The position numbers were made by a program, and so were the translations under genes. Positions 2 to 47,289 of a DNA stretch of 64,000 nucleotides are shown in pieces. This DNA is from Candidatus Omnitrophota bacterium. GTDB lineage: Bacteria > Omnitrophota > Gorgyraeia > Gygaellales > Profunditerraquicolaceae. Below the pieces are notes generated by a model, which had not been told where the DNA came from, made no database searches, and saw nothing but the letters and a program-made list of their open reading frames with translations. Each line of letters opens with the position of its first letter. The stretch's first letter is position 1. The stretch lies in contig JAQTQJ010000005.1 of the NCBI GenBank assembly GCA_028712255.1, positions 20,950 through 84,949 of the forward strand, in the 5' to 3' direction.

Positions 2-3000
2 TCGTTTCTTGTAGAGATAACAAAAGGAGGAAGAATATCAGATGGGGCTCTAGAAGTTTTGGCAGAGGCTTTTGGTCGGATAAATATAACCGGCGCAGAT
101 AAAGAGTTGCATCTTGCAGCACTTGTTTCAATTGTTTACCTTGTCCTTCCGGGGATAGATGTATCAGAGGTTATGTCAATTTATTTGGAGAAAGAGAAAG
201 AGTATTTGACAGGGGTTGGATTAAAAGAAAGAGTAAATTTGGCAGCGTTTGTGGGGCTCATGGCCATGCTTTATTATCAGGATAAAAACGGTAGAGATGG
301 TGTTTTGTTTAAAAATTCATTGAGTATTCTTAGAACCTTTATTTCCGAAAGTTATTTAAATGTGAGAGACGTCTTGGAGGTTGCTTTAGAGCAGGATATG
401 GAATTAGCCATGGAGTTATTTCATTGGATATTAATAGAGAAGGCTGATTTCCTTTTTTCTGCTCTGACCGCAACGGATATAGATGAAGCTGGCGAAACAG
501 ATTTTATTATCGATGGTGTATTCCTGGCGGATTATTTATTGATGCATACCATGTATCTTACAGTTATAAAACCCGATTCTAAAAGATTAGTGAAGTTATT
601 AAAAATAGACCCGCTCAATACTTTAATCAAAACAGCCATGGCAGAAGCTGTAAATCCAGCCGCTAAAGGCTTAGATTTCTTTGTAGGTTATTCTAATGTG
701 GAAAAGTTTTTCAAACGATTCTTCTATCCGGGTATGGCCTCCGAAGTAGAACTTGTTAATGAGATTAACGAAAGATTAAATAGTTTTCCGCAAAGGGATG
801 CATTAGGAGAAGCACTGGAGATTGAATTGTTAGTCAGATTTTTGTCTGATGAAGACATCGGGATTTTTAGCGATACAAGAAAAAACATCAAATCAAGAGC
901 AAGTATTTTGATTGCATCTGTTAAAGAATGTGTGAGCCCTGCGGTTATGTCAAGATCAGGCTTACAGCGTGCGGATGCAATCATAGCCGAAAAAGTTAAA
1001 AAGTTTATTGGAGGTGACGGTTTATTAAATAAGGAGGCGATGGCAGGCCTTTTAGAAGCCATAATCTATTTTTCTGAAGATGTTTTAATGGATATTTTTA
1101 GTAATGTTGTTGTGCCTTTTGCCACTAAAGGCCAGTTTAACTTTGGGGGCCGTACTTATAATGTTGAGCCAGGACAAGTGAGCAAAGCTACTGAAATATC
1201 TGTAAGTTCGCTTATCCGGGTGTATCTTGGGCATGGGCATCCTCAGTTTGAAATGCTTAAGCCGATTTTTAGGCGCAATATCAGAAAAATTTATGAACTG
1301 AGCCCGGACCCTGGGAAAAGGATAATAAGGGCAAGCATTGAAGAAGCAGGAGCTGATACCCACGAAGTGCTAGAGGTAAATGAGAGAACAATTACTTTTC
1401 ATGCGCAGTTGCCTCGGCAGCTAGTTTTAATAAATTTAGCTAAAGATAAATACGTACAGAGAAGTGATATTTTAGAGACAAGCGTAACGGAAATCAAAAG
1501 AGGCAACGCAATAACCGTAACCGCAGAGCCGCTTACTTTTAAACAGGAAGAGATTGTCCGGCAAGCAATTGTTGATGGCCTTACGCAAAATAGTGGCCGG
1601 ATGCTTACCGCTGAAGAGCTCGCTGAGCATGATCCAAAAGGGACGGTATCCAAAAATAAAACGATAGTTTATGTATTGCCAGAATTAGCTATTACAGATC
1701 ATTTTTTAGTGGCGTATGCAAATAGGCAAATGTTTGGTATGCGGGTTTTTATTTCAGAAGCCAAATGGGTATTCATTAAAGGTTTACATGAAGATACCAA
1801 AGTGGAATTTTGGAAGCACGAAGTTTTAGGGCATCTTAAACATCCGTTATGGAGCGAAGCAGAAGTTAAAGCAAAGTATCCTTCAGAGATGGTGGTGATA
1901 CCGGCGACCGATCAGGCTACTCTTCCACAGATGCTTAAATTAGCCCTGGAATATGGCGATCCAATCGCCGCCGTAACATTAACCAGGGAGAAATTCCGCA
2001 ATTACGGACCTCCTAATGAGCCTGTTAATTGGGATGAATATTTAGTTTGGTTAGTAGAAAAAAGACACACCTATGCCCTTGAGCAAATCTTGAATAGTAC
2101 ACCTGATGATAGAGAAAAAATAAAAGCTTTGATGGAAAGAATCATCTTTATTAAAACCAATAATCCCAAGTTAAGAAAAATAGAATATAGTCCAGAGATA
2201 AAGCAAAAATTATTGGATGTCTGGATATTCGCTCTCTATAGCCCGGATATAGAAAAATTAACCTCTGCTTTGGCGTTACTAGAAGAATTGAATGCGCAAT
2301 ATCCATACCAAAATGATGGATTAGAAGATGGGGATTTAGTTGTTGGTAAGACTGCAAGGCCCTGTCTTACTTTTCAAATTAAGACTCAAGTTACAAAAGA
2401 ACGCAAACGTAAATTGGTGAATTCTCTTAGAGAAGCTATAGTTGCTTTAGGTTTTGGAGAATTAAAAATCCAAGATACACAGGAATGCCCCTTATCTGCA
2501 TTTGCGGAATCTTTATTAGCTCAGAATCGTTGCATAGTTCCTGCAGGAACGCAGGTTGTATTTCAAGATATAGCCGGCCGATATGCGATTATATTAAAGC
2601 CTAATATAGGCCGAGAATATTCGGTTGCTTTTTCTGACAGACAGACATTGCAATCTGAAGATTTTACTGTAGCAGGCTCTTTTGTTCCAGGTAGTACAAG
2701 AATTCAAGATATAGAAATAGTCGTTGGTGGCATAAGAAAGAATTTACTGGATTTTATAGTTGAAAAAGGCTTTGCACCCGAAGCTATCAAAGAGAATAGT
2801 TTATTTCTTGAGGCAAGTTGTTGTTTTATTTATAACCCTTCTGATGGCAAATTACGTATGATCGAGGGGCGGCAGGTTAAACAATTTAAATACAAAGCGG
2901 ATACAGGCGAGATTACCTGGTGGAATAGTTACTTGCCTCGTTTAAAGATATTTTCTGATAATCAGACAGGATCAGCCCGGGGAGTGTTGCCCGGGGAAAA

Positions 3001-6000
3001 GGTTATTTTTGTCCATAGCCACGGCATAAAAAGAAGAAAAGAAGAGTTGAGAGCTTCTAGCATGGATGTTGATTTTGGCATAGCCTGGACAAGGTGGAGC
3101 TCTATTTTTAGAGTAGGATTATCAAATTCTCAAAGCGACCTAGTTATGGGGACAGGAGATAGCCATGATCTGATAATTAGCGAAACAAGGAATGGTTTTA
3201 AATTTCTTTTACTACATTGCAGCGTTCAAGAAAACTATGCCGTTTGTATGAGCAAAAAGTATAATTTTTCTACACACCGATGGGAGAATGAAGGAATAGA
3301 AAAAATAGAATTTGCTTCAGGTATTCCTGGCGCATCTTATGCTAAAAACGGGGGTGTAACTTTAGTTTGCAGAGATAACGCAGAGGCTTTGCCTACGGAT
3401 GCAGATTCGTGGGGACGGCGTTTAGCGTTGTCCCATGAAGCAATAAGCGCAGATTTTTTAAGTAACGGTGATTACGCCTGCGCCATAGCTGCTTTGAGGT
3501 TGGCATTAGTACATTTACCTAAAGGAGTGAAAAATAAAAATATAAGAGACAGGATTCAGGAAAAGCTAGCGCAGCTTATAGTAGGGCGGGAAGCATCTCA
3601 TCCTAATAATGGAAGCAATCATTCAGAATTAGATTTAGGCGCCTCTGGTTTCGAAGGCGAGGCAATGTTTGCAGAAAGAGCAGCAGAGGTTAAATATGCG
3701 CAGAGCCACTGCGTGAGTAAGCTTAATAATGATAATGAATTGATAGAAGGCGTACGCTGTTTCTTAAGGCAGCTTGATTTATTCCGATTGGCTGATAAAT
3801 ATAAAGAAATTGAGGTTCGGGTAATAGGAGGTATGGGATTTAAGCACCGCGGATGGTGGAATATTGAAAATGGTAGATTGATAATCTATATTAAAGAAAC
3901 ATACGCATCCGATGTTCTTGATTTACAGAAAGTAATTCTTCATGAGATACTGGCGGCAAGCAGAAATCCTGTTTTTGCCGGTAAAGAAGGGCACAATAAC
4001 AGCCTAGCCCTAGAATGTTTATATACCTCCTTCTGTTTGGATTCAAAGCAAATGACAATAGGCGAGTTATTAAGATCTTATGATCCACATGGATTGTTGC
4101 GTCGTATAATTTTCAGAGCTATTCTTTCTCATCAGGAAGTAATCGATGCGAAGCTAGATTTAGGCGCATCAGCCAAAAAACGCCAGCCTGAGCCTACCGT
4201 GTCTTCATTGTCAAGGGTAGCGAAAGTTATTTTATGTTTAATTTTAGCATCTGTAGTTATTGTAGCCCATGCGGTATGGTTATTATTGTTGATTATGTTC
4301 GGTGGTGCTTCACAATTTAATTTAATGGATATATTTGGGATAAATATTACATGGGGTTGGTTGATTATGATGGAGACTATGATTGCAGTGGGGTTAATGT
4401 TTGCTTCGTTTATCATGGATGATGGTTCTATAGTTATAAGCGATGTGAATCTGCATAAAGGCCATACATCTCCTAGGGCTACGGAGGAAGATATTGTGCT
4501 AAGCAATGAACAGGCTATAATGTGGATTCAAGTGAAGCAGGAGCAGGGAGCAAAAACAATCTCCGTTCTAGGCGGTAAACCGGTTAGTATCAAAGAAGCG
4601 ATAGAAGGTGTTAATGACGGAAGATTCGCTGGTTCTCTTACTGGAGGAGATAACAAGCTTATACTGCAGGTAAAGTATCCTTCTGAAAAATTACCTACCA
4701 ACGCTTACAATTCAGATGTTCCTTGCGCGACGCCTCCTGTCCTTACTATTATTGATACCTATGAGGCGGCAGAAGAATTCTTTATTCGCCGAGGCTGGAA
4801 ATCGTTACCGAGATGGGTGGTGGGAATATTTGTTAGCCCTTGGTATGAATTTCAATTCAAGTGGATTTTGCATCCTGTAAAATTTATAAGAGCGCACATT
4901 AATAAAAACATATGGCAGCTTATTTCGCGGATTACTGGCGTAATATTTATGTATGCGGCTATGCTATGTTTTCTATTTCCTGCCATATACCTGTTTTTAA
5001 CCGCGCCATCTTTTAACGTTCTGCCGAATATAATTCAATCCGTACTTTATGGCATCATGGCTTTTATCGGTGTGCACTTTGTATACAATATAGTATTCTT
5101 CTGGGCAATGCTAGTCTTAGGAGATGATTTGCGTTTTCATAGTGAATATAAGCGAGTTTTTACTGCTCAACAAATTCGAGGGTTTATTAGTTGGCTTATA
5201 GAAGGAGAATTGCAACATGAACGGCAGAGGATTGTTATTGGTTTTGTTGAGGGGTACTCAGAAGGTATTTTCCGGAGGGAGGGCGTACGTATTCATGTTG
5301 CCAAGGAATTTTTGGATAGTTTTAGTGAATTATTAATAAGGCAGAAATTACGAAATGCTCTTGTGGATAGGGATTACAAGGAACAGGATCAATATTCTCG
5401 CGCTTTAGAATTAATAATTCAGCAGGCCAATATTATTTTAGGGCCGCAATTGTTTGAAGATTCTTCCGTTGAAATAGTTGACTTAGCTAGGCGTTATCTT
5501 ATTGATGCAGTTGTCAAACATAGTGCTTGGCTTATTACTTTCAGCGGTATTTTGAGTGTGTGGGAAGGTGTTGTGCATAGTATGGAGAGCCAGGTAGATG
5601 CTCGCCAGTTCGGCGAATTTATGAATCGATTATACAGGATAGCTATAAAAGAGCTAGATGTTGAATGGGTTATACGTAAAGGAGCAGTATTGGACCGGGA
5701 GATAATGGTTGTTATTGGAAGAAAGATGCTTTCATTGATTCCTGATCATAATTTCGAACCCACTATTTATAGCGTTTTAATGATTACTCCGGATTTCTCC
5801 TTAGAGGAAGTTAGAAAACGCATTATGTATCTATTAAGTGATTGTATTACCGATGAAACAATTAATTCTTTAAAAGAAATTCTAGTTAAATTAGATAAGG
5901 AGAAAATTAATCCGGAAGCCCAAGCTAAAGTTATAATGGCTTTAAAATATCTTTGTTTTGATGTGAATCCTGGGATATCTAAATTTGCGCGTATTCTCTT

Positions 6001-15000: not shown

Positions 15001-18000
15001 AGTAGACAAGGTGGTAGATAAAGTTTCTTTAGAATTAGAAAGGGAGTTTAATTTAAGGCCTCAGGATTTCAAAGCGCAACTGGTCGGTGGTTGGTGGACG
15101 CAGTCTCAGGAGCTTGCACTAAAAATTACAAAATGCCTTGAAGAAAAACAGATAGCAATCGAAGGAATTGATGTTTTAAATAATCCCGAGAGGTTTATTT
15201 TTGATGGCAGGGACGCTTTCTACGGAGATTGTAGGATCATTTTAGATTTAGAAACAGGAGAAATATTTGATCTTATAGATTTAATAGAGCCTCACGACGG
15301 AATCTCAAGGCATATTATGCACTTTAGATATTACGCTGAATATATATTTAGGAGGATTTATAATGGAGGACAGCGAATGTTTGTTTTGGCTAAAAAAATT
15401 ACCGTTGTCCCCAATTTAAAGAAACTATTTTTAAGTTTATTAATTGCCATGTATTTTTTCTTAAGCCCCTTGCCTAGTAATATAAGTTTTATTGCTCCAG
15501 GGGTGGTTACAGCGAGTGCCCAGACGCCAACTCCTACCCAATTGTCTACTGAAGATGATTATCTAAATCGAGGTAACGAACATTTTTTTAAAAAAGAATA
15601 TGATGCGGCGATTGAAGATTATACTCAGACAATAAAATTAAACCCAACAAATGCCTTTGCTTATCATAATCGAGGAGTCTCATATAATAACAAAGTTGAT
15701 TATGATAGAGCGATTCGAGATTACGATCAGGCAATATTACTAAATCCAAAATATGCTGAGGCTTACAATAGCAGAGGTCTCGCTTATTATTTTAAAGGAG
15801 AAAATGAGAAAGCAATAAAAGATTATGATAGGGCAATAGAATTAGAACCCGATAATGTAAAGTTTAGAGATTTTCGAGCAGATGCTATAGGAAAATTATC
15901 GGTAAAACCAACTTCTACCCTTACAGCGACAGTTACGCGTACTCCTATACCTAAAACATCTACTCCTGTACTTAAATCATCTACGCCTACAGCAACAGCC
16001 ATACATACTCCCATCGTAACCAATTCGCCAACGCCAACATTTATGCCTATCGTATCTAGGGTGGCGACATGGACAGTAATACCTGTTTCCGCAGTTGAAG
16101 GCCCTGGAACGTTGGATAGGATCAAAGATCACTTGAAAGATAAGTGGTTGTGGTTAATTTTTACAATAGGACTAATAGCTATTTTTATTAAATGGAGACA
16201 GCGAATATTTATTTTTGCTCAAAAAATGGTCATTATTCCTAATTTAAAAGGATTTCTTAAATTTAAACCAGTCAGATTTTACTTAGGGTCGGGTAAAGAA
16301 ATTAATAAATTAACTATTCAAGAACGGCTATCTCTAGCCAAGCTGGCAGATCAATATTACGTTAAACAGATTAAGGATGTCCAGCCGAGCCTTATTTGTA
16401 CTGTTAAGAAAATCTTTAGCTTGAGGGGCCTGATCCTTATGTTGGCCGGAGGATTGATTACTTTTAAACTTTCTGTTTCCAATGATTGGCTTACTTTGGC
16501 CCTCGGAGCATTCTTTATGACTTTGTTGCCATACCTGCTTTCTGTCATCTATAATTTCTTCTTTTCATATATAGAACGCTATAGATTCCGTAGTGAATTT
16601 GTCAGGCAATATCTAAGAGATAAAAAAGTACAAGATAAAATAAAAGAAGAGCTTTCACAGATTAAGTCGGTGACTCAACCTTTACTTTCCATTAGAAGTT
16701 TATGGAATGATTTTACTTTAAGATCTCCTGTGTTTGCCGGTATTGTTATCTTTATTTTAGTAAAGGCCCAGATAGTTTTCTGGGGTTACTTAGCTGGTTT
16801 GGCAATTATCCCCTTGATTAGAATTGATATTGTTAACTTTACCTTAACTGGCATATTATCGACAATTTTAAAACTTATAAAATGGGAATGGTTTATCACT
16901 CCGGGTTTACAATTGGTAAATACATTAAATAATTTGGGTTTTGCTTTTACATTAGGGGATATTATTAAGTTGAGTGTAATTGCTTTAGGGTTAGCAATAC
17001 TATACACATCGCGCCACCGTAAAACATTACGTAAAATTGTTATTCATAATTTTAGGCAATTCTGGGTTAATCTAGTACACATCCTGGTTATTATTGCTAT
17101 AATGGGGAATCTCGGACTTAGTAGTTTTATGTTAAATAATTTCAAGCAAGCAACTGGAATTAGATTTCCTCAAGCGATTCATGCTCCTCTTAGCGGTAAA
17201 GTGGATGCAGGAATTTGGAATAGGGCTAATTTTATTTATCAACAGTTAAAAATAAATTCCGACTTAGCTTTGAAGATGGAGAACGGCCAGCAAGAATTGG
17301 AATTTCTATTAGAAGAATTTAAGGCGGGTAATGATATTAAAATCGAGGGGCCGACTGCTCCGGAGGTCAGGCAATTTTGTCTTTTCCTTCTGGGTCAGAA
17401 AGACAATACTCGGTCTAGAGAACTTCTTAATTTAGCTTTAAATGATCCGGATAAAGATGTACGCACGATGGCAATAATTTCTTTAAGTATAGCTGGCGAT
17501 ACGAAAGTAGCGTCTTTGCTTAATAATGCTTCGTTTAGGCAGGGAGGCCAGGTTCAGCAAGCGGCAGTTATTAGTTTGAAAAGTGTAAAGTCTTCTGAGG
17601 TAACGAATTTTCTACTAAAGAGTTTAAAGGATAATTCGCGTTCGGATATCCGTTCTGCTGCGGCAGGGGGGTTGATGGACAGAGTAAGCTTGCAGACAGT
17701 TAAAGATGCTTTGATATTCGCTTTAAATGATCCCGATCCGCTGGTAAGGAAAGCAGCGATTAAATCTTTGGCGCCGATAATCACAGCTGTAATTCCTCAA
17801 GTGGATTTAAAGACAATTGAGTCCATAAAACCACTTTTGTCTGATCCGGATTTGAATGTTCGTCAAGTTGCAATATTAGTTCTAGCTTTACGACTAGATG
17901 ATTTTCCTGGTAATTTAGGCCTTCTTATGCCTAAATTGACTGATTCTGATCAGCAGATTCGTTTGACTACCGTAGCAGCCGTAGGTTCACACCTAGATAA

Positions 18001-21000
18001 GTTTCCGCAATTAAAACAGTCATTTTCCAATATTGCTAAAGATAGTTCGCAGCCCATTGAGATTCGTAAAGCTGCAGTTTTAAGTTTAGGTAATCTAAAA
18101 GATTGGTATTATTTTGTATCTCTAGCTTCAGATCCTGATTGGCAAATACGGGAAATTGTAGCGACTTCTTTTGGCTATTTTGACCAGTTTCAAGCTTTAT
18201 CGTATCTTAGACCGTTATTAAAAGATGATTCTGCAAAAGTTAGATTAGCGGCAGTGAATTCTCTTAGTCATTTCGACGATCCTCAGGTCTCTGAGATTTT
18301 AATCTCGATATTAGAGGATCATGACTTGCAAGTCCGAGAATCTGCGCTTAATATATTAGTTGATAAGAAGCCTCTGGAATTAAAACAGGTGTTCTTGGAT
18401 GTTGGTAGGGATATCTCTCAACCTGCTGAGGTTAGGCAAGATACGCTTCTATATTTATGCAATATAGATTTCTTAAAACGCAATATTTCATCGCCCAATA
18501 GAGCTCAGTATGTTGGTGGTTATAATTTTTTAATTAGTTCAGAAAAACTTCAAAGGGTAGCCTTATTGTTAGGTAATCTGAAAGGTATAATGATTCTTGA
18601 TTTACTTAAGCCTTTAACTAAGGATCTTAATGGGCCGGTGCGGGGAGCCGCTGCTACTTCACTTGGTAATTTTGACCAACCGGAAACCATAGATTATCTT
18701 AAGCCGCTTTTAAATGATTATGAGTGGCCAGTGAGAGTGGCAGCAATGCGTTCTTTAATTAAATTTAATGATCCTCGAGTTGCTGAATTATTAATTCCCC
18801 TGTTAACTCGCCCTGTTTTAGTAGAACCAATAGGTTATAATCCGTGGGTCCGAGAATATACGATTAGCGCCTTGGCTGACAATATAAATCGACCTGAAGT
18901 AAGGGAGATTTTTTTAGGTTTATTAAAATCTTCGTTTAGGGAGGAAGACGCGATTCTGTCAATAATTTCCCAGGCAAATTTAAAGACAATTGAGTCCGTA
19001 GAACCATTTTTGTCTGATCCTAATCCAAGTGTTCGGCGAATTGCAGTATTAGTTTTAGCTTCAAGGTTAGATGATTTTCCTGAAACATTAACTTTCCTTA
19101 TTCCACTTTTTAATGATAATGATTCACAGGTTCGCTCTACCGCTGTTTCAGCCTTAGCTCCGTATATAGGTAAATTTTCGCAATTAAAGCAGCCATTTTT
19201 CAATATTGTTAAAGATGTTTCTCAGCCTATCGAGGCACGCCAGAACGCATTATTTTATTTATCGAAGCTCGATGTCCCGGAAGTAAAAGCTTTGTTAGTT
19301 AGTAATTTAAATAATACTGACTGGAAAATGCGCCAGGCTGCAGTATTAGGTTTAGGTAATCTCAAGGATTCTGAAATTCCCGATTTACTTAAGCCTTTAA
19401 TTCGGGACCCTTACGAGAATGTCAGGCAAGCCGTTGTAACCTCTCTTGGTAATTTTAATCAACCCCAGGTAATTAGTTATCTTAAACTGTTTCTAAATGA
19501 TGATTCTTCGAATGTGCGTAAAAGTGCGATATTATCTATAGGTTCAAGGTTGGATGATTTTCCTGAAAATGTAACTCTTCTTACTCCACTTTTTAATAAT
19601 AAAGATTCACAGGTTCGCTCTGCTGCTGTCTTAGCTTTAGGCCCATACCTAGATAAGTTTCCGCAATTAAAGCAGCCATTTCTGGATATTACTAAAGATG
19701 TTTCGCAACCTATCGAGGCACGCCAGAATGCATTATTTTATTTGTCGAAGCTCGATGTTCCGGAAGTAAAGGCTTTATTAACTAGTAATTTAACTAGCAC
19801 TGATTGGAAAATGCGCCAGGTTGCAGTATCAGGTTTAGGTAATTTTCGAGGCCCCGAAATCTCTGGCCTACTTCAACCTTTAACCTTAGATCCTATTTCG
19901 GCTGTACGTGTGAGTGTTGCATTATCTTTGGGCCAATTAGATGAACCCCAGGCAGCGCAATCATTAGCATTTTTATTAAAAGATAATGATGTTTCTGTTC
20001 GTCAAGCCGCGTTGACATCTTTAGGTCTAAAGTTAGATCTTTTTCCTAAGAATTTAGATCTTTTGATACCGTTTTTAACTGACCCAAATTTACAGATTCG
20101 CTCTACTGCCGTTTCAGTCTTAGGACCAAGTATAGATAAATTCCCACAATTAAAACAACCATTCCTAGATATTGCTAAGGGTCTTTCTATGCCTATTGAT
20201 ATGCGTCAAAATGCGATGTTTTCTTTATCTAAGCTTGATACTCCTGAAGTAAAAGCTCTGCTAACTAGTAATTTAGCTAATACTGATTGGAGAATGCGTC
20301 AGGTTGCAGTATTGGGCTTGGGTAATTTTAAAGGTCCTGAAATCCTAGATCTGCTTAAACCTTTAACCCTTGATCCTGCCTGGCAGGTCAGACAAGCTAC
20401 TGCAACTTCTTTTGGTAACTTCAACCAACCTCAAACTATAGATTACCTTAAGCCGCTTTTAAGTGATAGTTATTGGCAAGTACGGTCGGCTACTACGGCC
20501 TCTCTTGGTAATTTTAATAATCCTCAAGTTCTAGATTCTCTTATCCCTAGACTAAATGATCCTGCTTGGCAGGTACGCGAGAGTACGGCAGTGTCTTTGG
20601 GTCAATTCGATGAATCCAAGATGGTGGAATCATTAATGCCTTTATTAAAAGATAATAATGTTTTTGTGCGGCAAGCCGCTGTATTATCCTTAGGAGATAA
20701 AGTTAGATTGTACCCGCAGTTGTCAGGAGAATTTGTCAATATTTTAAAAACAGACAACGATCTTTGGATTAAACAAATCTCTGCTTTTTCTCTGCAAAGT
20801 ATAAATACGCCGAAGGTAGAGGAAGTAAAACCATTAATTAAACAAGCCACTTCAGAAATAAGAGTTGTCGTTATTATATCTGGAATTGATGATTGGTTAG
20901 GATTTTTTCCCTTGACGGGTCGTAAAACAGGTGAGACTGGATTGAAAAATTGGTCTTTAGTTAATATACTAAAAGCGGGTGGTTTACAGGTGGTTGAACA

Positions 21001-21796
21001 TCCTTGGTCTGGAAATCTTCCTCTTCCTGGATTTCCAGGAAGTATTACTGGAAAAGAGTTTCGGAAGTCACAATTAGATTTAGATAAAACTATTAATCAT
21101 GCATTAGATTTAGCTAATGGAGGCAAGATAGGGGTTATTCTTTATAGCGGCGGTAATTATGTCGCAGAAAGATTATTTGAATCAGATTTATCTCCAAGAA
21201 TAAGGGAGGCATTTGAAGCAGGCAGGATACATATCGATAGTTTAGGCAATCCTTCTACCAAAAACTTCGGCTTATTAGATCCTAATTGGAAAAATATTTG
21301 GTCAATGAGTGACCCTATTTCTATATTGTCTATAATACCCCTTGGTATACATGATGTTTACTTTCCCAATCTTTCCCATTTTTCATATCAATATCCTAAT
21401 GTTATTTCTTATTTAGGGAATGATATAGCTCATTGGAATTACACTCCTACAAGTGGCTCTTGGCCGGGTACCTATAATTTTAATAGCATTGCGCCTTCTG
21501 ATTATTGGAAACAGCAACAATTTCAACAACCCAATTTTGGGTTACCTCAATATCAACCCTTTCCAAGTCAATCACCGTTGAATAATTATCAGCCGCTTCA
21601 GCAGTATCAGCCGTCTATATTGCAACCACAGCAGCCTTTATATCAACCTCCGCCAAGTGAACTTTTTAAAATACAATCACCGATAAATGATTATCAGTCA
21701 TCTCAACAGTATCAATCGCCGATGAGGGATTATCAGCCTTCGATGGCTCAACCTAATCTTCCATCTCTACCTAATTTCGGTGGGATTGGGAAATAA
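2..21796 (+). CDS. Giant multidomain membrane-associated protein of at least 7,245 aa. The reading frame is open to the 5' window edge, so the first candidate start (TTG at 59) may not be the true start. It carries multiple TM clusters, a SAM-MTase motif, HEXXH, a CheD-like motif, TPR blocks, a HEAT/PBS-like repeat array, and a Q/P/Y-rich C-terminal tail.
   Basis: A single uninterrupted 21.7 kb frame in 40% GC DNA is very unlikely by chance. Six-frame track gives 59..21796. I hand-translated the frame back to position 2 and found no stop. Recognisable motifs: ILDIGFGEG (nt about 6404-6430), HEMYH (9506-9520), GICDCIAVTLYN...ALLHLYRG (about 14917-14990), TPR consensus blocks (about 7990-8470 and 15540-15870), and 30-aa LxDxDxxVRxxAxxALG repeats (about 17400-20720). 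Confidence 0.85.
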   Translation, partial: SFLVEITKGGRISDGALEVLAEAFGRINITGADKELHLAALVSIVYLVLPGIDVSEVMSIYLEKEKEYLTGVGLKERVNLAAFVGLMAMLYYQDKNGRDGVLFKNSLSILRTFISESYLNVRDVLEVALEQDMELAMELFHWILIEKADFLFSALTATDIDEAGETDFIIDGVFLADYLLMHTMYLTVIKPDSKRLVKLLKIDPLNTLIKTAMAEAVNPAAKGLDFFVGYSNVEKFFKRFFYPGMASEVELVNEINERLNSFPQRDALGEALEIELLVRFLSDEDIGIFSDTRKNIKSRASILIASVKECVSPAVMSRSGLQRADAIIAEKVKKFIGGDGLLNKEAMAGLLEAIIYFSEDVLMDIFSNVVVPFATKGQFNFGGRTYNVEPGQVSKATEISVSSLIRVYLGHGHPQFEMLKPIFRRNIRKIYELSPDPGKRIIRASIEEAGADTHEVLEVNERTITFHAQLPRQLVLINLAKDKYVQRSDILETSVTEIKRGNAITVTAEPLTFKQEEIVRQAIVDGLTQNSGRMLTAEELAEHDPKGTVSKNKTIVYVLPELAITDHFLVAYANRQMFGMRVFISEAKWVFIKGLHEDTKVEFWKHEVLGHLKHPLWSEAEVKAKYPSEMVVIPATDQATLPQMLKLALEYGDPIAAVTLTREKFRNYGPPNEPVNWDEYLVWLVEKRHTYALEQILNSTPDDREKIKALMERIIFIKTNNPKLRKIEYSPEIKQKLLDVWIFALYSPDIEKLTSALALLEELNAQYPYQNDGLEDGDLVVGKTARPCLTFQIKTQVTKERKRKLVNSLREAIVALGFGELKIQDTQECPLSAFAESLLAQNRCIVPAGTQVVFQDIAGRYAIILKPNIGREYSVAFSDRQTLQSEDFTVAGSFVPGSTRIQDIEIVVGGIRKNLLDFIVEKGFAPEAIKENSLFLEASCCFIYNPSDGKLRMIEGRQVKQFKYKADTGEITWWNSYLPRLKIFSDNQTGSARGVLPGEKVIFVHSHGIKRRKEELRASSMDVDFGIAWTRWSSIFRVGLSNSQSDLVMGTGDSHDLIISETRNGFKFLLLHCSVQENYAVCMSKKYNFSTHRWENEGIEKIEFASGIPGASYAKNGGVTLVCRDNAEALPTDADSWGRRLALSHEAISADFLSNGDYACAIAALRLALVHLPKGVKNKNIRDRIQEKLAQLIVGREASHPNNGSNHSELDLGASGFEGEAMFAERAAEVKYAQSHCVSKLNNDNELIEGVRCFLRQLDLFRLADKYKEIEVRVIGGMGFKHRGWWNIENGRLIIYIKETYASDVLDLQKVILHEILAASRNPVFAGKEGHNNSLALECLYTSFCLDSKQMTIGELLRSYDPHGLLRRIIFRAILSHQEVIDAKLDLGASAKKRQPEPTVSSLSRVAKVILCLILASVVIVAHAVWLLLLIMFGGASQFNLMDIFGINITWGWLIMMETMIAVGLMFASFIMDDGSIVISDVNLHKGHTSPRATEEDIVLSNEQAIMWIQVKQEQGAKTISVLGGKPVSIKEAIEGVNDGRFAGSLTGGDNKLILQVKYPSEKLPTNAYNSDVPCATPPVLTIIDTYEAAEEFFIRRGWKSLPRWVVGIFVSPWYEFQFKWILHPVKFIRAHINKNIWQLISRITGVIFMYAAMLCFLFPAIYLFLTAPSFNVLPNIIQSVLYGIMAFIGVHFVYNIVFFWAMLVLGDDLRFHSEYKRVFTAQQIRGFISWLIEGELQHERQRIVIGFVEGYSEGIFRREGVRIHVAKEFLDSFSELLIRQKLRNALVDRDYKEQDQYSRALELIIQQANIILGPQLFEDSSVEIVDLARRYLIDAVVKHSAWLITFSGILSVWEGVVHSMESQVDARQFGEFMNRLYRIAIKELDVEWVIRKGAVLDREIMVVIGRKMLSLIPDHNFEPTIYSVLMITPDFSLEEVRKRIMYLLSDCITDETINSLKEILVKLDKEKINPEAQAKVIMALKYLCFDVNPGISKFARILLEAFEPSFQRGQTRVDYAIVIGMASVLTAVIGLVFNVEILDIINQIGSWLTVLFHSPPIQVNFNSLPAISIVTAIPLICLIGNFTHFNYVFEPQGYMFLHEDEAVRGLARRAFNLATGDFYRQIFKEIGLGDRVRILDIGFGEGSHVASLLSQTRHKIVGLEVMPEYVKKAREKDPLQEVIESGWYHMQFSDNFFNAVSGVNALYFAGNEKELRWLITEIDRVIKAGPDGVKRIYQLFDRPLTQYWFTIEEWSVMESLGLSTPALRVMNNGWRRFFTVLSSIFNELGYEVKLSYVTKEAQGERTVSQKQLTSSSRGNKFFYDVNGNRSVEYSSLISEPYVAEEVGVYIVRAWRRESVTKEDMVIPSVANGFFGKHIKIDQAMAERLIKRLFTPEELPIVSYSIERHENAEAKGKSHWKAIGEQRKVSGYELVRARLELLQILIYLGYKNEVDLISMFTEIQNLSSRKEFTDFRDKIKSARDTEQLRLVLDGLISVFWGQGYSNVNKYMPIFEFLVNGLLDKDIFRFIENLDIPLEEQGVLKKFIISCATFHQLAYIIFSLWGINVQAAFAPSHAFLLMPINRQKAIIVDYSLEVVRVIDLWKYTRKGRKFVLIEEYRAPLGRVIAIRKQVRDGNLKDISSLLDEELLSSYYPYIEIVPAYGFTTGIYNDVGTVYKELGMYHEAGGYFQQAIKLMPSLPDVHFNLGVTYWCQNRPREAVEELELTTKYDPDDTDAYYNLGTINLELGRQQKAMTALIKAIELNPLLIEARYNLANIYMTQGRYLEAIEQYEIVIVIKPDFAQAHYNLGIAYWQIGNRDKAYEVYIRAIIFFRRCLNTLPPEEDMVGTRIDDHSVSGATEDDVRRELLRLRELRLISEYTLIEEDHIIERASQLYQQLTGKIVDLRISNIHFRRAPFASRYRAFWLREDNKIKIYIKGEATAYDILHEFLAILDKTGHLSNVILSCAYLPLFARRFIYRIVNGRNNSAVDFASYGGFARLGRFLVGTVLALIGKLSLKRGTSSFDTRNDPKNVPPFVFISDKFTSREKQLIQKITAEVIGLLVPQEKQQKLALHPLFFKRVNAFDVLVDHKFICTLYILSVLIMSVVNIILGRDLFFNITTYLVVVAILWVVINYKFYSSDFSYYIQGIRRRHKILIGSYIFDEQLVSMVAHEMYHYLNSIGLIKNPDLTTAFDMLFTLEHFGEEALDDHDWLEAGEILMGIPNPEVREKILLKTARISRFALLMRKVFGYLPERSWGYMYGRLQAANAYALSSVLNGPQEVSFIARDALEYIILRVHGYEPGAAEETIRTYINNRNSSASIGKPHHLRPVTQWLAGQILRIVARQKDNIFFKVYRETYNANLAYIQEINGNRGPPILKKFLAFTRPIARGLTPDGAICWLIPVKFTTQEYLSDETIASISKHESQSTELEGLIAQYKLGTVLKPIENRFSFKGHFSFGSIIVFNSFLRRLFILAAFISLGIGLFYAASISGLMNWYLEIKGVIPEGSLIGSPKAILLDMLTGVLIWGLPDLAGQYLKGSRIILKQAFILAFAGFFIGALLHLLYNFPEAVLPYFMSLLASNILLAKVAAIGVVLVIGVGIAVSYGRLISYLKANFRKEEETGRGIEALKLYEVLLYKLFVTPVVLIFIVLTFEPVLRVLVSLPVEIIKMIPVGYLMNRREPLFITGIIQNIARFKHSVGYARGRKDVSSMLDSQTTSGPVNGDAPQGDTLYCSIIPVDPALLARWGKLLAGILLKLIEKVSCIREGDRFSFGVRSVLKSIGIVAVFVGSAFMMAHGLKSTAGTEGSFDVYSYIVIFAVSFLAVLYCVLFLGAALINAMTDESAKRAFENQSLGVYYLNRGEYKMASWYFRRAVEFARNSRKDKFRSALVVENVMMEVSRTDFVKACERALDAIRRYLDLGQARKAADIKVGIDNSTTTIIARENVRQHGPFMVTNEEPFSHGCLQSEIVNADDPCVQRILTGAFGGFNANSRYYLLFGHLDMPVALAEKRGGILSGIRPYIEKTSAVSLISCSIRYYQITLAYLCRLRGLENEQPNRELLKDIERIYTPKTADALYLMYFKTVSRLRPFEIKFFHAWFHFHPFFRWIKGFDLLYRAMDDLIARESQEVISQEEGLLREGGRLIYILPEQIEEVAALWDKYPRGKRQPLIQFLVESAQLNSYLWDKESSYQIYEQLAERIIPRVWLTATLDEAGMLCDLIWLLCLSGSYPVRARLAQSVSSCLSGLKTKREEAQQEKGKSPLIKLQAYVLEEFLKAIYVMLLGDSSPVVVAAAEGEIRFLVGARAITREEYLAMETFCAGIKTVPEMLPGIGYTPIIPEGAELRLPYAEMTQGIRDMLGLGDLPIAYRLLDEGVRRIDLFSQQKPRHPLARLFAWPRVLLRRLTLLGHGAPKQLPVIRAIILSSQRQAVENDIIRAPPAVIEEVDFHLQGFAPAHHQAGKICYEEFSNLNNLIEAVRRAQHPFLISYASGKFHLGILLDKGASWLCGKDYIKQKRQEHYVGRYFRLEEERDLGIRERIFQFEAATSNQLAKVLDGQQVLIIGPGDNLDEAAYFIRNYPGLARVVVVDWHLPNIIDILEKMAGLEQPIREKIVLCYSDAASMVFDGVFTICYSRYTMVGDILSDAVIDSIWSRIALALQPGGFFIGYAHEAAAFFESFSKIAGGQKSVSIAVRREGISRPLVKFESRDGNGDVSQGYTLPATGLDGEQVVTDGIVRLSAFTGAGLIMASAQTVLNNNSYYLDPLSDSIFQPAFLLELMNRGPPVELFGISSDLSALFLIPLVAFFAFPSLRRFISTFWASLKNNLRVSLLRTSLTVQKIFERVLNLIKSLLQSKKTSNGAFALALLELRKAKEGQNIPERLSEKLAYLFALAAKYSHYSFEFYEWEELAQAAGLENPKKTRDSMPDTKKAIRVSAFDVYRIARSNCVERRHIELSFFKRLISGSKRVFHGRYIKTYGICDCIAVTLYNRQNRVGALLHLYRGSKVDKVVDKVSLELEREFNLRPQDFKAQLVGGWWTQSQELALKITKCLEEKQIAIEGIDVLNNPERFIFDGRDAFYGDCRIILDLETGEIFDLIDLIEPHDGISRHIMHFRYYAEYIFRRIYNGGQRMFVLAKKITVVPNLKKLFLSLLIAMYFFLSPLPSNISFIAPGVVTASAQTPTPTQLSTEDDYLNRGNEHFFKKEYDAAIEDYTQTIKLNPTNAFAYHNRGVSYNNKVDYDRAIRDYDQAILLNPKYAEAYNSRGLAYYFKGENEKAIKDYDRAIELEPDNVKFRDFRADAIGKLSVKPTSTLTATVTRTPIPKTSTPVLKSSTPTATAIHTPIVTNSPTPTFMPIVSRVATWTVIPVSAVEGPGTLDRIKDHLKDKWLWLIFTIGLIAIFIKWRQRIFIFAQKMVIIPNLKGFLKFKPVRFYLGSGKEINKLTIQERLSLAKLADQYYVKQIKDVQPSLICTVKKIFSLRGLILMLAGGLITFKLSVSNDWLTLALGAFFMTLLPYLLSVIYNFFFSYIERYRFRSEFVRQYLRDKKVQDKIKEELSQIKSVTQPLLSIRSLWNDFTLRSPVFAGIVIFILVKAQIVFWGYLAGLAIIPLIRIDIVNFTLTGILSTILKLIKWEWFITPGLQLVNTLNNLGFAFTLGDIIKLSVIALGLAILYTSRHRKTLRKIVIHNFRQFWVNLVHILVIIAIMGNLGLSSFMLNNFKQATGIRFPQAIHAPLSGKVDAGIWNRANFIYQQLKINSDLALKMENGQQELEFLLEEFKAGNDIKIEGPTAPEVRQFCLFLLGQKDNTRSRELLNLALNDPDKDVRTMAIISLSIAGDTKVASLLNNASFRQGGQVQQAAVISLKSVKSSEVTNFLLKSLKDNSRSDIRSAAAGGLMDRVSLQTVKDALIFALNDPDPLVRKAAIKSLAPIITAVIPQVDLKTIESIKPLLSDPDLNVRQVAILVLALRLDDFPGNLGLLMPKLTDSDQQIRLTTVAAVGSHLDKFPQLKQSFSNIAKDSSQPIEIRKAAVLSLGNLKDWYYFVSLASDPDWQIREIVATSFGYFDQFQALSYLRPLLKDDSAKVRLAAVNSLSHFDDPQVSEILISILEDHDLQVRESALNILVDKKPLELKQVFLDVGRDISQPAEVRQDTLLYLCNIDFLKRNISSPNRAQYVGGYNFLISSEKLQRVALLLGNLKGIMILDLLKPLTKDLNGPVRGAAATSLGNFDQPETIDYLKPLLNDYEWPVRVAAMRSLIKFNDPRVAELLIPLLTRPVLVEPIGYNPWVREYTISALADNINRPEVREIFLGLLKSSFREEDAILSIISQANLKTIESVEPFLSDPNPSVRRIAVLVLASRLDDFPETLTFLIPLFNDNDSQVRSTAVSALAPYIGKFSQLKQPFFNIVKDVSQPIEARQNALFYLSKLDVPEVKALLVSNLNNTDWKMRQAAVLGLGNLKDSEIPDLLKPLIRDPYENVRQAVVTSLGNFNQPQVISYLKLFLNDDSSNVRKSAILSIGSRLDDFPENVTLLTPLFNNKDSQVRSAAVLALGPYLDKFPQLKQPFLDITKDVSQPIEARQNALFYLSKLDVPEVKALLTSNLTSTDWKMRQVAVSGLGNFRGPEISGLLQPLTLDPISAVRVSVALSLGQLDEPQAAQSLAFLLKDNDVSVRQAALTSLGLKLDLFPKNLDLLIPFLTDPNLQIRSTAVSVLGPSIDKFPQLKQPFLDIAKGLSMPIDMRQNAMFSLSKLDTPEVKALLTSNLANTDWRMRQVAVLGLGNFKGPEILDLLKPLTLDPAWQVRQATATSFGNFNQPQTIDYLKPLLSDSYWQVRSATTASLGNFNNPQVLDSLIPRLNDPAWQVRESTAVSLGQFDESKMVESLMPLLKDNNVFVRQAAVLSLGDKVRLYPQLSGEFVNILKTDNDLWIKQISAFSLQSINTPKVEEVKPLIKQATSEIRVVVIISGIDDWLGFFPLTGRKTGETGLKNWSLVNILKAGGLQVVEHPWSGNLPLPGFPGSITGKEFRKSQLDLDKTINHALDLANGGKIGVILYSGGNYVAERLFESDLSPRIREAFEAGRIHIDSLGNPSTKNFGLLDPNWKNIWSMSDPISILSIIPLGIHDVYFPNLSHFSYQYPNVISYLGNDIAHWNYTPTSGSWPGTYNFNSIAPSDYWKQQQFQQPNFGLPQYQPFPSQSPLNNYQPLQQYQPSILQPQQPLYQPPPSELFKIQSPINDYQSSQQYQSPMRDYQPSMAQPNLPSLPNFGGIGK
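17400..20720 (+). repeat. Intragenic HEAT/PBS-lyase-like repeat array inside the giant ORF. Three tandem super-repeats of about 483 bp (161 aa) start near 19179, 19662 and 20145; an older diverged copy starts near 18005.
   Basis: Protein shows recurring DPxxxVRxxAxxxLGN units. Nucleotide stretches such as 19179-19320 and 19662-19800 are about 90% identical at a 483-bp offset. Confidence 0.75.
21490..21796 (+). repeat. Low-complexity Gln/Pro/Tyr-rich C-terminal tail of the giant protein, with YQP/QQYQ repeats.
   Basis: Translation reads KQQQFQQPNFGLPQYQPFPSQSPLNNYQPLQQYQPSILQPQQPLYQPP... Confidence 0.7.
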
Positions 21797-21935
21797 GAAA
21801 GAAGATGAAAAAAACTATTAATTTATAGGTGTTTTTTTGGAAATAAGCCTAGCGGTAACTATACCATCATACACGCTGCCATAATAGACTTATACACTAT
21901 CACCGCGCAGCGTTAAATAGAGAGGAGAGAGTATA

Positions 21936-22337
21936 ATGAATAAGATAAATTTATTTTTACTAATAGTAATAAGCTTAATAGCAATCTGCGTTGATTGTTA
22001 TGCTGGGTACTTTCTTTTTTTTATGACCGCTATGCCTATAGGGTATTATTTATCTCCAATTTTATTATTGATTATTGTTATATCGGCGCCAACCATCTTT
22101 ATTGTTTCGATTATAAATTTATTTAAATTTAAAAAATGGGCGTATTACGCATTTTTTATTATAACAGTCTTGATGCATTTGTTTTTGATAGGGTTAGATA
22201 TGTATTTTTTAAATACTAAAATAATCAAGTACCTAAAGATCGAACAGTTCATTCCCATAATTTCATTGTCATTTTTCGTTATATATTTTATGCTTCCATC
22301 TACCAAAAGCATGTTTAAATATATATCTAAAACATAA
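21936..22337 (+). CDS. Small hydrophobic membrane protein with about 4 TM helices; hypothetical.
   Basis: ORF of 133 aa, strongly hydrophobic and Ile/Leu/Phe-rich. Preceded by gagaggagagagtataATG. Confidence 0.4.
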   Translation: MNKINLFLLIVISLIAICVDCYAGYFLFFMTAMPIGYYLSPILLLIIVISAPTIFIVSIINLFKFKKWAYYAFFIITVLMHLFLIGLDMYFLNTKIIKYLKIEQFIPIISLSFFVIYFMLPSTKSMFKYISKT

Positions 22338-22394
22338 GCAGAACAAACATAAGCATAAGTAAGGACCGTCTGTTTTTATCTATTTGTAGATTAA

Positions 22395-23005
22395 TTAGTT
22401 CCAACGGAACGGTTCCGTTCTTTGAAAAGCTTGTTAGAAATATCTTCTTTCTCCGTCTATTGTCTTAGGAGGGAGGGTATATGGCAAGACAAGAGAGAAT
22501 TTACTTTGAGAATGCTGTTTACCACATAACAATAAGAGGTAATAATAAACAAAATATCTTGAAGCAAGACGAGGATAAAAAAAGTTTTCTTGAGTCTTTA
22601 GTAAGATTCAAATCTCGTTTTGGATTTAAGCTCCACGCTTTCGTTTTAATGGATAACCACGTTCATCTTATTATTGGGACTAACAGTAAGATAAATATAT
22701 CAAAGATTATGCATGCCATAACGCTGTCTTACAGCGTTAAGTTTAGGAGAAAGTATCTTTATTCTGGATACGTTTGGCAGGGAAGGTTCAAAAGTAATGT
22801 CATTGATGGTGATAGATATATTATTGAATGTTTAAACTATATCCATAACAATCCCGTAAGGGCAGGCATGGTTACAAGGGTCGAAGATTACTTTTGGAGT
22901 AGTTATCAATTTTGCAATGGATTAGAAAATAAAATTAAAGATTATATTCAGATAGATTGGTTTAAGGATAATTAAAAAGGGGACAGTTCCTTTGGAACGT
23001 TATAT
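22395..23005 (+). mobile_element. RAYT unit: tnpA(REP)-like gene bracketed by short palindromes, 22403-22419 aacggaacggttccgtt and 22979-22999 ggggacagttcctttggaacg.
   Basis: The hairpins share the GGGGAC(A/G)GTTC core with the dispersed hairpin family found elsewhere in the window. Confidence 0.6.
22481..22975 (+). CDS. REP-associated tyrosine transposase (RAYT, IS200/IS605 TnpA-like, HUH family).
   Basis: Motifs NAVYHITIRGNN, FVLMDNHVHLII (HUH), YVWQGRF (catalytic Tyr region) and NYIHNNPV. RBS ggagggagggtatATG. Flanked on both sides by GGAAC/GTTCC hairpins. Confidence 0.85.
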   Translation: MARQERIYFENAVYHITIRGNNKQNILKQDEDKKSFLESLVRFKSRFGFKLHAFVLMDNHVHLIIGTNSKINISKIMHAITLSYSVKFRRKYLYSGYVWQGRFKSNVIDGDRYIIECLNYIHNNPVRAGMVTRVEDYFWSSYQFCNGLENKIKDYIQIDWFKDN

Positions 23006-23786: not shown

Positions 23787-23799
23787 AAAGGAGTGTAGA

Positions 23800-25134: not shown

Positions 25135-25307
25135 CTCTATTTCCCGATTAGCTTGGAAACTGTTTCGGTGTAACATGTTGTACTGCAAATGGTTTGGAAT
25201 AAATGCGTTTGTGTAGAAAAATATTTTTTTCCTTGATTTATTCGGTGAAATAAGGGATAATATTTGTAAGTTAACTTGTCTCAGTGGCTTAGGGATGGGA
25301 GAAAATA

Positions 25308-26369: not shown

Positions 26370-26484
26370 TTTAGCCAATAAAAAACTTGACCTGCTGGCT
26401 AAAATATGTTAAATTTTAATATTACGTCTTTTTATAATCTATTCCTATTGGGTTAAGCCTCCACGACAAACGGAAGGAGATAAA

Positions 26485-29740: not shown

Positions 29741-29764
29741 GTTGTTTAAAATTTGAATTTAATG

Positions 29765-29899
29765 TGTCATTGCGAGCCCGTTATATTAGTCATTACGAGG
29801 AGCGAAGCGACGAAGCAATCTCTAAAAATGGGATTGCTTCGGGCACTTCGTGCCCTCGCAATGACGGAGTTGGTTTTATTCGGCTCCTCGCAATGACAA
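29765..29899 (+). repeat. Family II palindromic element, copy 2. Extended or double unit with four CATTGCGAG/CTCGCAATG half-sites.
   Basis: Same core as copy 1. Overlaps the 5' end of ORF 29737 and supplies the ATG at 29893. Confidence 0.8.
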
Positions 29900-46168: not shown

Positions 46169-46170
46169 AC

Positions 46171-47277: not shown

Positions 47278-47289
47278 TTTTCTTAGTGA

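Follow-up and report, generated by a model that had tools for sequence, protein, structure and literature searches.

A giant Omnitrophota gene of at least 21.8 kb encodes a membrane-embedded mosaic of reusable modules

We analyzed a 64,000-nucleotide (nt) stretch of DNA from Candidatus Omnitrophota bacterium (GCA_028712255.1, contig JAQTQJ010000005.1, positions 20,950 to 84,949), hereafter the window, which opens with a single giant open reading frame (ORF). Frame +2 runs without a stop from nt 2 to a TAA at 21794-21796. It comprises 7,264 sense codons (21,795 nt) and is still open at the window's 5' edge, where the gene is truncated. The next longest stop-free run in any frame of the window has 820 codons. 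Given the base composition of the window, any random codon has a probability of 0.070 of being a stop, and the chance of meeting none in 7,264 codons is approximately 1e-228. An earlier note on this DNA had called a stop-free frame from 2 to 21796, and that call stands; the length it gave (at least 7,245 residues, counted from a TTG at nt 59) holds as a lower bound, as the ORF extends past the 5' edge. We find that the giant ORF is one genuine, uninterrupted protein-coding gene. Residues (aa) are numbered here from the first codon in the window, and all features given with coordinates lie on the + strand.

Codon usage points to one gene along the whole length. A log-likelihood score was trained on 34 other genes of the window and applied to fourteen 1.5-kb slices. 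In each of the 14 it was +0.14 to +0.24 for the frame of the ORF and below zero for the two alternative frames. Guanine-cytosine content (GC) at the three codon positions (GC1/2/3) also agrees with that of the other window genes. Together, these observations argue against hidden frameshifts or an out-of-frame gene fusion. Note that metagenome assemblies can be chimeric, so the ORF might instead be an artefact of assembly or annotation, either a chimeric contig or several genes joined by sequencing errors. The window itself comes without read-level evidence, and the second assembly that corroborates it, a 12.7-kb Logan contig of run SRR22315508 (L001) that matches window positions 13742-26437 with 100% identity, covers the last 8 kb of the giant ORF only. 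We nevertheless regard an artefact as extremely improbable, given the stop statistics and the uniform, single-frame codon usage. The only sizeable DNA repeat is a 483-nt unit in 2.7 copies (nt 19062-20377) within a region of HEAT repeats. Its copies are 74-85% identical, which makes repeat collapse unlikely, and near-identical repeats of the kind that promote mis-joins are absent. Furthermore, related Omnitrophota contigs carry uninterrupted ORFs of comparable length (at least 5,456, 6,941, and at least 3,365 aa) with modules in common, and the head, internal modules, and C-terminal cassette of the giant protein each have homologues in Omnitrophota.

The conserved N-terminal head (aa 1-491, nt 2-1474) contains neither a Pfam domain nor a transmembrane (TM) helix. 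It is 79% identical to aa 223-716 of P0001, a protein from an Omnitrophota metagenome-assembled genome (MAG), GCA_030647935.1. The P0001 gene starts with a GTG located 90 nt past the stop of the preceding ORF, with no other in-frame start in between. The alignment and this start together indicate that about 222 N-terminal residues are missing from the window, and the full-length protein probably has ~7,490 aa. Scans of GTDB genomes and Joint Genome Institute (JGI) metagenomes with the N-terminal 491 aa gave no match that would extend the 5' end, and a look-up of neighboring sequence yielded the 12.7-kb Logan contig only.

Pfam recognizes a small set of named domains in the giant protein, and NCBIfam agrees with it on these. 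By sequence, the module at aa 2087-2330 (nt 6260-6991) is a class I S-adenosylmethionine (SAM)-dependent methyltransferase. Both Methyltransf_11 (34.9 bits, cut-off 21.2) and Methyltransf_25 (35.6 bits, cut-off 27) match aa 2135-2226, motif I (GxGxG) reads ILDIGFGEG at aa 2136, and the module is 85% identical to the C-terminus of another homologue, P0002. A first TPR block spans aa 2665-2830 (nt 7994-8491; TPR_11, TPR_1, and TPR_2, E = 1e-29 to 1e-30), and a second matches TPR_1 with E = 9e-27. An array of HEAT/PBS-lyase-like repeats extends over ~1,150 aa (aa ~5790-6990 in Pfam; aa ~5790-6950, nt 17369-20851, as delimited here; HEAT_2 380 bits, HEAT_PBS 125 bits) and includes the 483-nt super-repeat. 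NCBIfam lyase and NblB models scored far below their cut-offs here (NblB 192 versus 300). The protein ends in a low-complexity tail rich in Gln, Pro, and Tyr (Q/P/Y; aa 7165-7264, nt 21494-21793), the last 100 aa containing 23 Q, 19 P, and 8 Y.

Most of what the earlier note had read from this protein was borne out. Pfam confirms its SAM-methyltransferase motif I, two TPR blocks, and HEAT/PBS-lyase-like repeats. The single HEXXH motif is present (HEMYH, aa 3169), and both the Thr/Pro linker (aa 5296-5370, with 18 T and 11 P among 75 residues) and the Q/P/Y-rich tail are as described. The protein is, as proposed, a membrane-embedded mosaic of many domains that matches no characterized family. 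The note had also suggested segment-wise profile searches as a check; these were run with Pfam and NCBIfam, and no known giant adhesin family matched. Its CheD-like reading of a Cys/His motif is not supported, since neither Pfam nor NCBIfam returned a CheD match at E <= 5. What is left is a region (nt 14849-15331) with the short pattern GICDCIAV...H at aa 4973-4995 and no database homologues, whose sole match is Cu-oxidase_4 (YfiH-type) at 16-17 bits, below the cut-off of 22.9. Two further candidates were rejected: a second methyltransferase at aa ~4560 (LIIGPGDN, GxG-like), to which Pfam gives no support, and a transglutaminase-like core at aa 2540-2600, before the first TPR block, with zero Pfam support even at E <= 10.

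Ten segments spanning the remainder of the protein yielded only sub-threshold DUF5700 and Cu-oxidase_4 in Pfam at E <= 5. No glycosyltransferase, glycosyl hydrolase, or NUDIX domain was found within the giant protein by Pfam or NCBIfam even at E <= 5. Neither a SecA_DEAD nor a SecA preprotein-binding domain occurs in the 7,264 aa, and the missing ~222 aa are too short for one. Pfam scans revealed no adhesin-type domains (Ig-like, cadherin, discoidin, laminin_G, dockerin, or TSP3) and none of the Pfam domains of RTX/Bap-type surface adhesins. Scans for tRNAs, Rfam families, promoters, and terminators gave nothing relevant.

The source taxon is Omnitrophota. The earlier note had taken the giant gene to be of an Omnitrophota type, and this lineage is supported by MnmG (window 42619-44577), for which we found 75 loci in GTDB species representatives, at best 84% identical, as in JAQURC01 STD1_64, and nearly all labelled Omnitrophota or Omnitrophica, as well as by the named homologues of the giant protein, all of which are from Omnitrophota. 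A word-index search of 5.8 billion proteins with aa 1-2100 returned one match, P0001. Otherwise, the giant sequence is represented in that collection by just a 2,684-aa C-terminal fragment from a Logan contig. The same search with aa 2850-5180 gave zero matches, even though this region and P0001 have in common a stretch of 131 aa at 54% identity; the word-index tool is thus insensitive to long queries. Exhaustive searching of 1.84 billion representatives by HMMER, with aa 2850-4049 as the query, found 39 matches, all named ones being from Omnitrophota. Module boundaries were obtained by local BLAST of the whole giant protein against the homologues found with HMMER. Self-BLAST of the whole protein gave the diagonal only, and internal repeats needed a chunked search. 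The Cys/His region and the C-terminal domain, concatenated as one query, had no match at a database-wide E <= 0.01. Sequence searches of the PDB with two long segments and two module profiles returned nothing beyond a weak methyltransferase match, the module profiles themselves having no relatives there.

We find that the regions without Pfam matches contain discrete modules, which are reordered in other Omnitrophota giants and sometimes exist as stand-alone small membrane proteins. One such module occurs twice and carries the motif HExxA(x6)H. Copy 2 (aa 2850-3010, nt 8549-9031) is common to ten proteins at 30-43% identity, and a 12-sequence alignment shows invariant W, Y, H, E, A, and H residues, with an invariant His at +11. 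In the AlphaFold2 model, ~120 core residues have a predicted local distance difference test (pLDDT) score above 90. In the core, two helices are followed by a three-stranded sheet, and this in turn by the helix that bears the His and Glu. A Foldseek search with this model gave nothing significant. Judging from the model, the module may have a zincin-like fold, atypical and possibly with a two-His site, and we propose it as a new zincin-like module and putative peptidase. Zincin metallopeptidases, among the closest known systems (metzincins such as astacin and snapalysin, and minigluzincins), have HExxH and a third ligand, whereas the giant's module has HExxA and lacks the canonical second His. 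Copy 1 (aa 1207-1387, nt 3620-4162) is divergent, of the form HExxA(x6-12)H, and was detected by internal BLAST to copy 2 (E = 3e-4). It aligns with all of the invariant residues and is followed by a TM hairpin; its match to the module profile is weak (domain E = 0.02). Elsewhere, the HExxA..H module is found in proteins of 530-890 aa.

Downstream of copy 2, a TM hairpin (aa 3088-3133) and a juxtamembrane HExxH module (aa 3162-3307, with HEMYH at aa 3169) together occupy nt 9263-9922. They were delimited by hydropathy and by homology to P0039, a stand-alone 251-aa membrane protein with HELIH to which the HExxH module is 31% identical. The HExxH site has a sub-threshold match to Pfam DUF5700, a putative Zn peptidase family (E = 0.15). 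Module M3 follows (aa 3305-3445, nt 9914-10336), marked by the motifs ETYNANL...GNRGPP...ARGL...HESQxxEL. It is present in eight proteins at 37-51% identity, including P0001, P0003 (twice), P0014, P0015, P0020, P0025, and P0036. In P0001 (locus L077), a look-alike of sigma-70 regions 2 and 4 lies at aa ~2040-2200, just upstream of M3; the NCBI name of this protein is 'sigma factor, partial'.

Module M4 (aa 3457-3690, nt 10370-11071) has ~20 homologues at 23-63% identity and neither a Pfam match nor a PDB sequence match; on this sequence evidence it defines an uncharacterized domain family of ~6 TM helices. It is 60% identical to P0002 over the best stretch of the HMMER search and 55.5% by local BLAST. 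Among its relatives are stand-alone proteins of 248-343 aa and one fusion (P0007) in which it directly follows a glycosyltransferase family 2 (GT2) domain, and it also occurs within many Omnitrophota giants. Across members of the family (P0018, P0023, P0029, P0009, and P0007), the invariant positions include W, Y, D, G, D, GQ, and H. Module M5 (aa 3765-4315, nt 11294-12946) combines a TM hairpin with a soluble region lacking Pfam matches. It is 35% identical over 566 aa to P0005, a 6,941-aa Omnitrophota protein, and 34% identical to P0004. Within the giant ORF, GC is 0.43-0.44 in window 10000-14000 and ~0.38 elsewhere, with third-position GC (GC3) of 0.40-0.42 as opposed to 0.27-0.33. This rise over modules M4 and M5 may mark a segment with a different history.

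The C-terminal part of the protein forms a cassette (aa 5412-7264) shared with P0020 at 23-46% identity, depending on the sub-domain. Its first part comprises a juxtamembrane leader and a bundle of five to six TM helices at aa 5464-5709 (together nt 16199-17128; 46% identical). A metagenome scan with an alignment of these TM segments gave no match. The HEAT array is the second part (~35% identical), and an alpha/beta domain at aa 6950-7165 (nt 20849-21496; ~23% identical) is the third. This alpha/beta domain shares the motifs WSGN, [YF]S[GA]GN (in a strand-turn-helix element), DPI, and LGxH with P0020 (pairwise E = 6e-10), which also ends in a comparable Q/P/Y-rich tail. The AlphaFold2 model of the domain, of low confidence (pLDDT 45.9), places a Ser at a strand-helix turn resembling a nucleophile elbow. 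Foldseek matches of this model were a non-significant mix of lipases, cutinases, and KaiC (best E 0.02). On these observations the domain is a low-confidence candidate for the hydrolase-like region that the earlier note had listed as possible.

Immediately before this cassette lies an inserted segment, aa 5126-5399 (nt 15377-16198), consisting of a signal-peptide-like TM helix, the second TPR block (aa 5187-5295), the Thr/Pro linker, and a return TM helix. Direct repeats of ~52 nt, 80% identical (nt 15369-15420 and 16197-16248), bracket the 276-aa inserted segment, and this whole segment is missing from the cassette of P0020. The repeats are a candidate insertion junction, and the bracketed segment a candidate scar of one module exchange. 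Its first codon, at nt 15377, is an ATG in frame with the giant ORF. GGAGGA stands at -13 to -8 relative to this ATG, and an AGGAGGA occurs farther upstream (window 15345-15380). The peptide that begins there resembles a Sec signal and ends ASA/Q. Read this way, the ATG could have been left behind by a gene that was once separate, or it could still serve as an internal start. In-frame ATGs preceded by Shine-Dalgarno (SD)-like 4-mers number seven in the giant gene, near the number that we estimate for chance.

A hydropathy scan detected ~25 strong hydrophobic helices, chiefly arranged in hairpins. Up to aa 3830 there are five pairs (starting at aa 1413, 1647, 2018, 3090, and 3774, with loops of 3-28 aa) and one six-helix domain at aa 3469-3674. 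A later pair, at aa 4733-4807, has a weaker first helix. The first three pairs form the TM hairpins at aa 1408-1473, 1640-1706, and 2017-2084 (nt 4223-6253; hydropathy peaks 2.0-2.8, loops 22-28 aa), and the stretches between them are soluble and without Pfam matches. All seven TM clusters that had been listed for this protein were recovered, and two were added (nt 6053-6250 and 14339-14431). P0001 has a hydrophilic N-terminus, helical by prediction, that contains neither a signal peptide nor a hydrophobic leader. Given the lack of a signal peptide, and with every TM pair bringing the chain back to the side it came from, we predict a cytoplasmic location for the large soluble modules as far as aa ~5140. 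SAM-dependent methyltransferases need cytoplasmic SAM, and this placement therefore fits the methyltransferase module.

Farther along the chain, the helix at aa 5139-5157 has a K-rich N-terminal flank, and the helix at aa 5378-5396 a K/R-rich C-terminal flank. These charges place the second TPR block and the Thr/Pro linker (aa 5161-5379, ~220 aa) in a loop that is predicted to be periplasmic. If the last bundle (aa 5464-5709) has six helices, its two strongly basic loops cannot lie in the cytoplasm together, and the positive-inside rule slightly favors five. With five helices, everything beyond the bundle (HEAT array, alpha/beta domain, and tail) would lie outside.

The genes that follow the giant gene make up a recognizable neighborhood. 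First comes a stretch (21936-23786) with a 133-aa ORF, an IS200-like Y1 transposase (22481-22975; Pfam Y1_Tnp, E = 8e-18), and a 264-aa ORF. Next are a PD40/Tricorn-like beta-propeller (23800-25134) and two PilZ genes (25308-25664 and 25665-26369), identified with Pfam and 33, 58, and 71% identical, respectively, to their counterparts on L078, the contig of another Omnitrophota MAG (GCA_016938245.1) that encodes P0020. The longest PD40 ORF (23575-25134) overlaps the 264-aa ORF (22992-23786) by ~210 nt; the real PD40 start is put near nt 23800 both by the Logan gene call and by aligning the L078 orthologue. These are followed by a sugar-type solute-binding protein (SBP; 26485-27783; Pfam; 81% identical to the L078 SBP), two ATP-binding cassette (ABC) permeases (27878-28756 and 28892-29740; Pfam), and a protein with TPRs and a TIM barrel like that of glycosyl hydrolase family 2 (GH2; 29737-32172; Pfam), with ROK and LacI genes farther downstream.

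On L078, a giant ORF of at least 5,456 aa, open at the contig edge, is followed by PD40, PilZ, PilZ, and SBP genes in the same order as in the window. Nothing equivalent to 21936-23786 lies between its giant and PD40 genes, and this stretch looks like a mobile-element insertion particular to the present genome. According to West-Roberts et al. (2023, bioRxiv 10.1101/2023.11.21.568195), pilZ homologues lie downstream of most Omnitrophota giant genes, and after them come genes for solute-binding proteins, transporters, and glycosyl hydrolases, while GH2 and transposase flanks have been described for Omnitrophota long-protein genes (Nielsen & Lui 2026, bioRxiv 10.64898/2026.06.07.730766). Given these published flanks and the synteny with L078, we identify the window as a canonical giant-gene locus with a transposase insertion. 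This revises the earlier note, which had seen the neighbors as merely ordinary housekeeping and transport genes: the run from PD40 to the GH2-like gene is the published neighborhood of giant genes and recurs on L078.

The rest of the window offers several further observations. All plausible genes in window 1-64000 (more than 40 ORFs) are on the + strand, an unusually strict orientation. GC skew is positive in 31 of 32 bins of 2 kb, the exception being -0.003 at 20001-22000, and the cumulative skew never drops by more than this one bin across the 64 kb. A complete Pho-type cluster lies at 45476-53116, comprising a response regulator, a PAS histidine kinase, a DUF2490 protein, a phosphate-binding protein, two permeases, two ABC ATPases, and PhoU. 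At 59658-63340 there is a tandem duplication of a gene pair, the ammonium transporter Amt (59658-60884 and 61670-62908) and P-II (60975-61316 and 62999-63340), and the 20 nt upstream of both P-II genes are identical.

Comparison with L078 suggests how the giant gene evolves. The PilZ and SBP neighbors are 58-81% identical between the two loci, whereas the giants share only the C-terminal cassette and M3. We infer from this that the giant gene diverges faster than its neighbors, by gain, loss, and shuffling of modules. Such accelerated, mosaic divergence agrees with Nielsen & Lui (2026), who report singletons to make up 80% of Omnitrophota long-protein clusters. Positional counterparts keep only the head or the tail cassette and exchange the rest.

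We consider it fairly probable that the giant protein, encoded at an Omnitrophota giant-gene locus, is a modular scaffold that is anchored in the inner membrane and carries enzyme modules, in the manner of the Archaeovorins. TPR and HEAT repeats would give binding surfaces on such a membrane-tethered scaffold, and the enzyme modules (the methyltransferase, the zincin-like peptidase, and a possible serine hydrolase) would sit at the envelope. The protein would probably co-operate with the PilZ proteins, whose ligand is cyclic di-GMP, as well as with the adjacent sugar uptake and hydrolase genes. The setting would be the host- or prey-associated lifestyle proposed for Omnitrophota, and a function in host contact, like the cell-contact or predation role raised in the earlier note, is a conjecture taken from the literature. 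Several points weigh against this picture. About 70% of the giant protein has no Pfam match, and our searches gave no homologues and no Pfam matches for aa 492-2086, 2331-2660, and 4316-5125. The N-terminus and the upstream genes fall outside the window, and common Archaeovorin domains (glycosyltransferases, NUDIX, and SecA_DEAD) are absent. Our topology is based on a hydropathy scan and the positive-inside rule rather than on a trained predictor, and the C-terminal bundle can be read as five helices, leaving the HEAT array periplasmic, or as six, leaving it cytoplasmic. West-Roberts et al. (2023) consider such topology predictions unreliable and report HEAT repeats in predicted extracellular regions, which would be at odds with a largely cytoplasmic location of the last 1,550 aa.

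These last points bear on an alternative in which the protein is mainly an extracellular coat or adhesin, with the HEAT array, the TPRs, and the C-terminal domain outside the cell, binding or degrading the surface of a host or prey. A coat of this kind has been proposed for the giant protein of Velamenicoccus archaeovorus and for this class (West-Roberts et al. 2023; Seymour et al. 2023, PMC10066038). The Thr/Pro-rich linker and the signal-peptide-like helix at aa 5126-5160 are consistent with it, as are the preference of the positive-inside rule for a five-helix bundle that exports the HEAT array, alpha/beta domain, and tail, and the adjoining GH2-like and sugar-uptake genes. We still think it unlikely, because the homologue P0001 begins without a signal peptide, the pairing of TM helices as far as aa 4810 brings the chain back to the same side, the methyltransferase requires cytoplasmic SAM, and Pfam scans detected zero adhesin-type domains.

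The product might alternatively not act as one chain. Its own zincin-like and HExxH modules could cut it, as a polyprotein, or internal starts could yield several membrane proteins from the one gene. Stand-alone versions of the modules do exist (M4 in 248-343 aa, the HExxH module in 251 aa, and HExxA..H in proteins of 530-890 aa), each of the three peptidase-like modules adjoins a TM hairpin, and the ATG at nt 15377 combines GGAGGA at the usual spacing with a signal-like sequence running to ASA/Q. Self-cleavage was also raised for this class by West-Roberts et al. (2023). However, no conserved cleavage motif was found between the modules, the seven SD-preceded ATGs are about as many as we expect by chance, and the zincin-like modules lack the canonical second His and may be inactive. 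Internal starts alone, moreover, would not require selection to keep 21.8 kb free of stops. We therefore judge multiple products to be quite unlikely. A bolder proposal, which we regard as very unlikely, joins both themes: the gene would be a rapidly recombining cassette array, its hairpin-delimited modules swapped at short junction repeats such as the ~52-nt pair around the second TPR block and the Thr/Pro linker, and its product would be cut by its own HExxA(x6)H modules into a changing set of envelope proteins for interaction with host or prey.

Giant genes matter as a hallmark of Omnitrophota, a phylum of ultra-small, probably host-dependent bacteria that is widespread and almost wholly uncultured. 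At ~7,500 aa and at a canonical locus, the present protein is small enough to be tractable and is now split into modules. Its dark sequence includes discrete, reusable units, such as the 6-TM domain and the zincin-like HExxA..H module, that also exist as small stand-alone proteins. Paired TM helices and a methyltransferase that requires the cytoplasm argue that much of the protein faces the cytoplasm, unlike the usual adhesin reading.

The closest known counterparts are themselves mosaics. P0020 (MBN2831415.1, 'HEAT repeat domain-containing protein') is the positional counterpart, directly upstream of PD40, PilZ, PilZ, and SBP. It has the C-terminal cassette in common with the giant, from the TM bundle to the Q/P/Y tail, and M3, but is without the TPR and Thr/Pro insertion. 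Its other ~4,000 residues are unrelated to the giant and carry HD, Methyltransf_4, and CheR-like domains. P0001 shares the head (79%) and M3 (51%), the rest being unrelated, and P0002 ('methyltransferase domain-containing protein, partial') shares M4 (55-60%) and the methyltransferase module (85%). Both are truncated by their contigs, and in both the module order differs from that of the giant, with unrelated segments interspersed. With PBS-lyase HEAT-like proteins (NblB, CpcE/F), the giant shares the repeat type only, not the family.

The gene also takes its place among the described giants of the phylum. Like the giant ORFs of Seymour et al. (2023), it is an uninterrupted ORF of more than 20 kb in an Omnitrophota genome, and its product has multiple TM helices, few annotated domains, and poor conservation. 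Nielsen & Lui (2026) catalogued hundreds of long proteins of at least 10,000 aa, 94% of those from Omnitrophota bearing TM helices or signal peptides, and read a 'TM-only' class as cytoplasmic domains threaded through the membrane. The present protein is under their cut-off but fits this membrane-anchored class, mixes 'multi-enzyme' with 'tandem-repeat scaffold (HEAT, TPR)' content, and is encoded with the same GH2 and transposase flanks. HEAT, TPR, and methyltransferase domains are typical content of Omnitrophota giants (West-Roberts et al. 2023; Nielsen & Lui 2026). The type of the Archaeovorins is the 39,678-aa protein of V. archaeovorus LiM (West-Roberts et al. 2023). The giant resembles Archaeovorins in its phylum, its many TM helices, its combination of HEAT (their commonest domain) with TPR and a SAM methyltransferase, its domain-less N-terminal region, and the pilZ, SBP, ABC permease, and glycosyl hydrolase genes downstream. 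It is 4-11 times shorter, that study having selected genes of more than 90 kb (more than 30,000 aa), and Pfam did not detect in it their glycosyltransferase, NUDIX, SecA_DEAD, and glycolytic-enzyme domains; a divergent SecA_DEAD or SecA preprotein-binding domain is found in most Archaeovorins. Archaeovorins also have peptidase domains, for which the zincin-like modules are candidates here, and a T2SS/T4P-like secretion cluster upstream of the gene, on the side that falls outside the window. The giant gene is thus not a new category but an additional, fast-evolving example of the described Omnitrophota giant genes.

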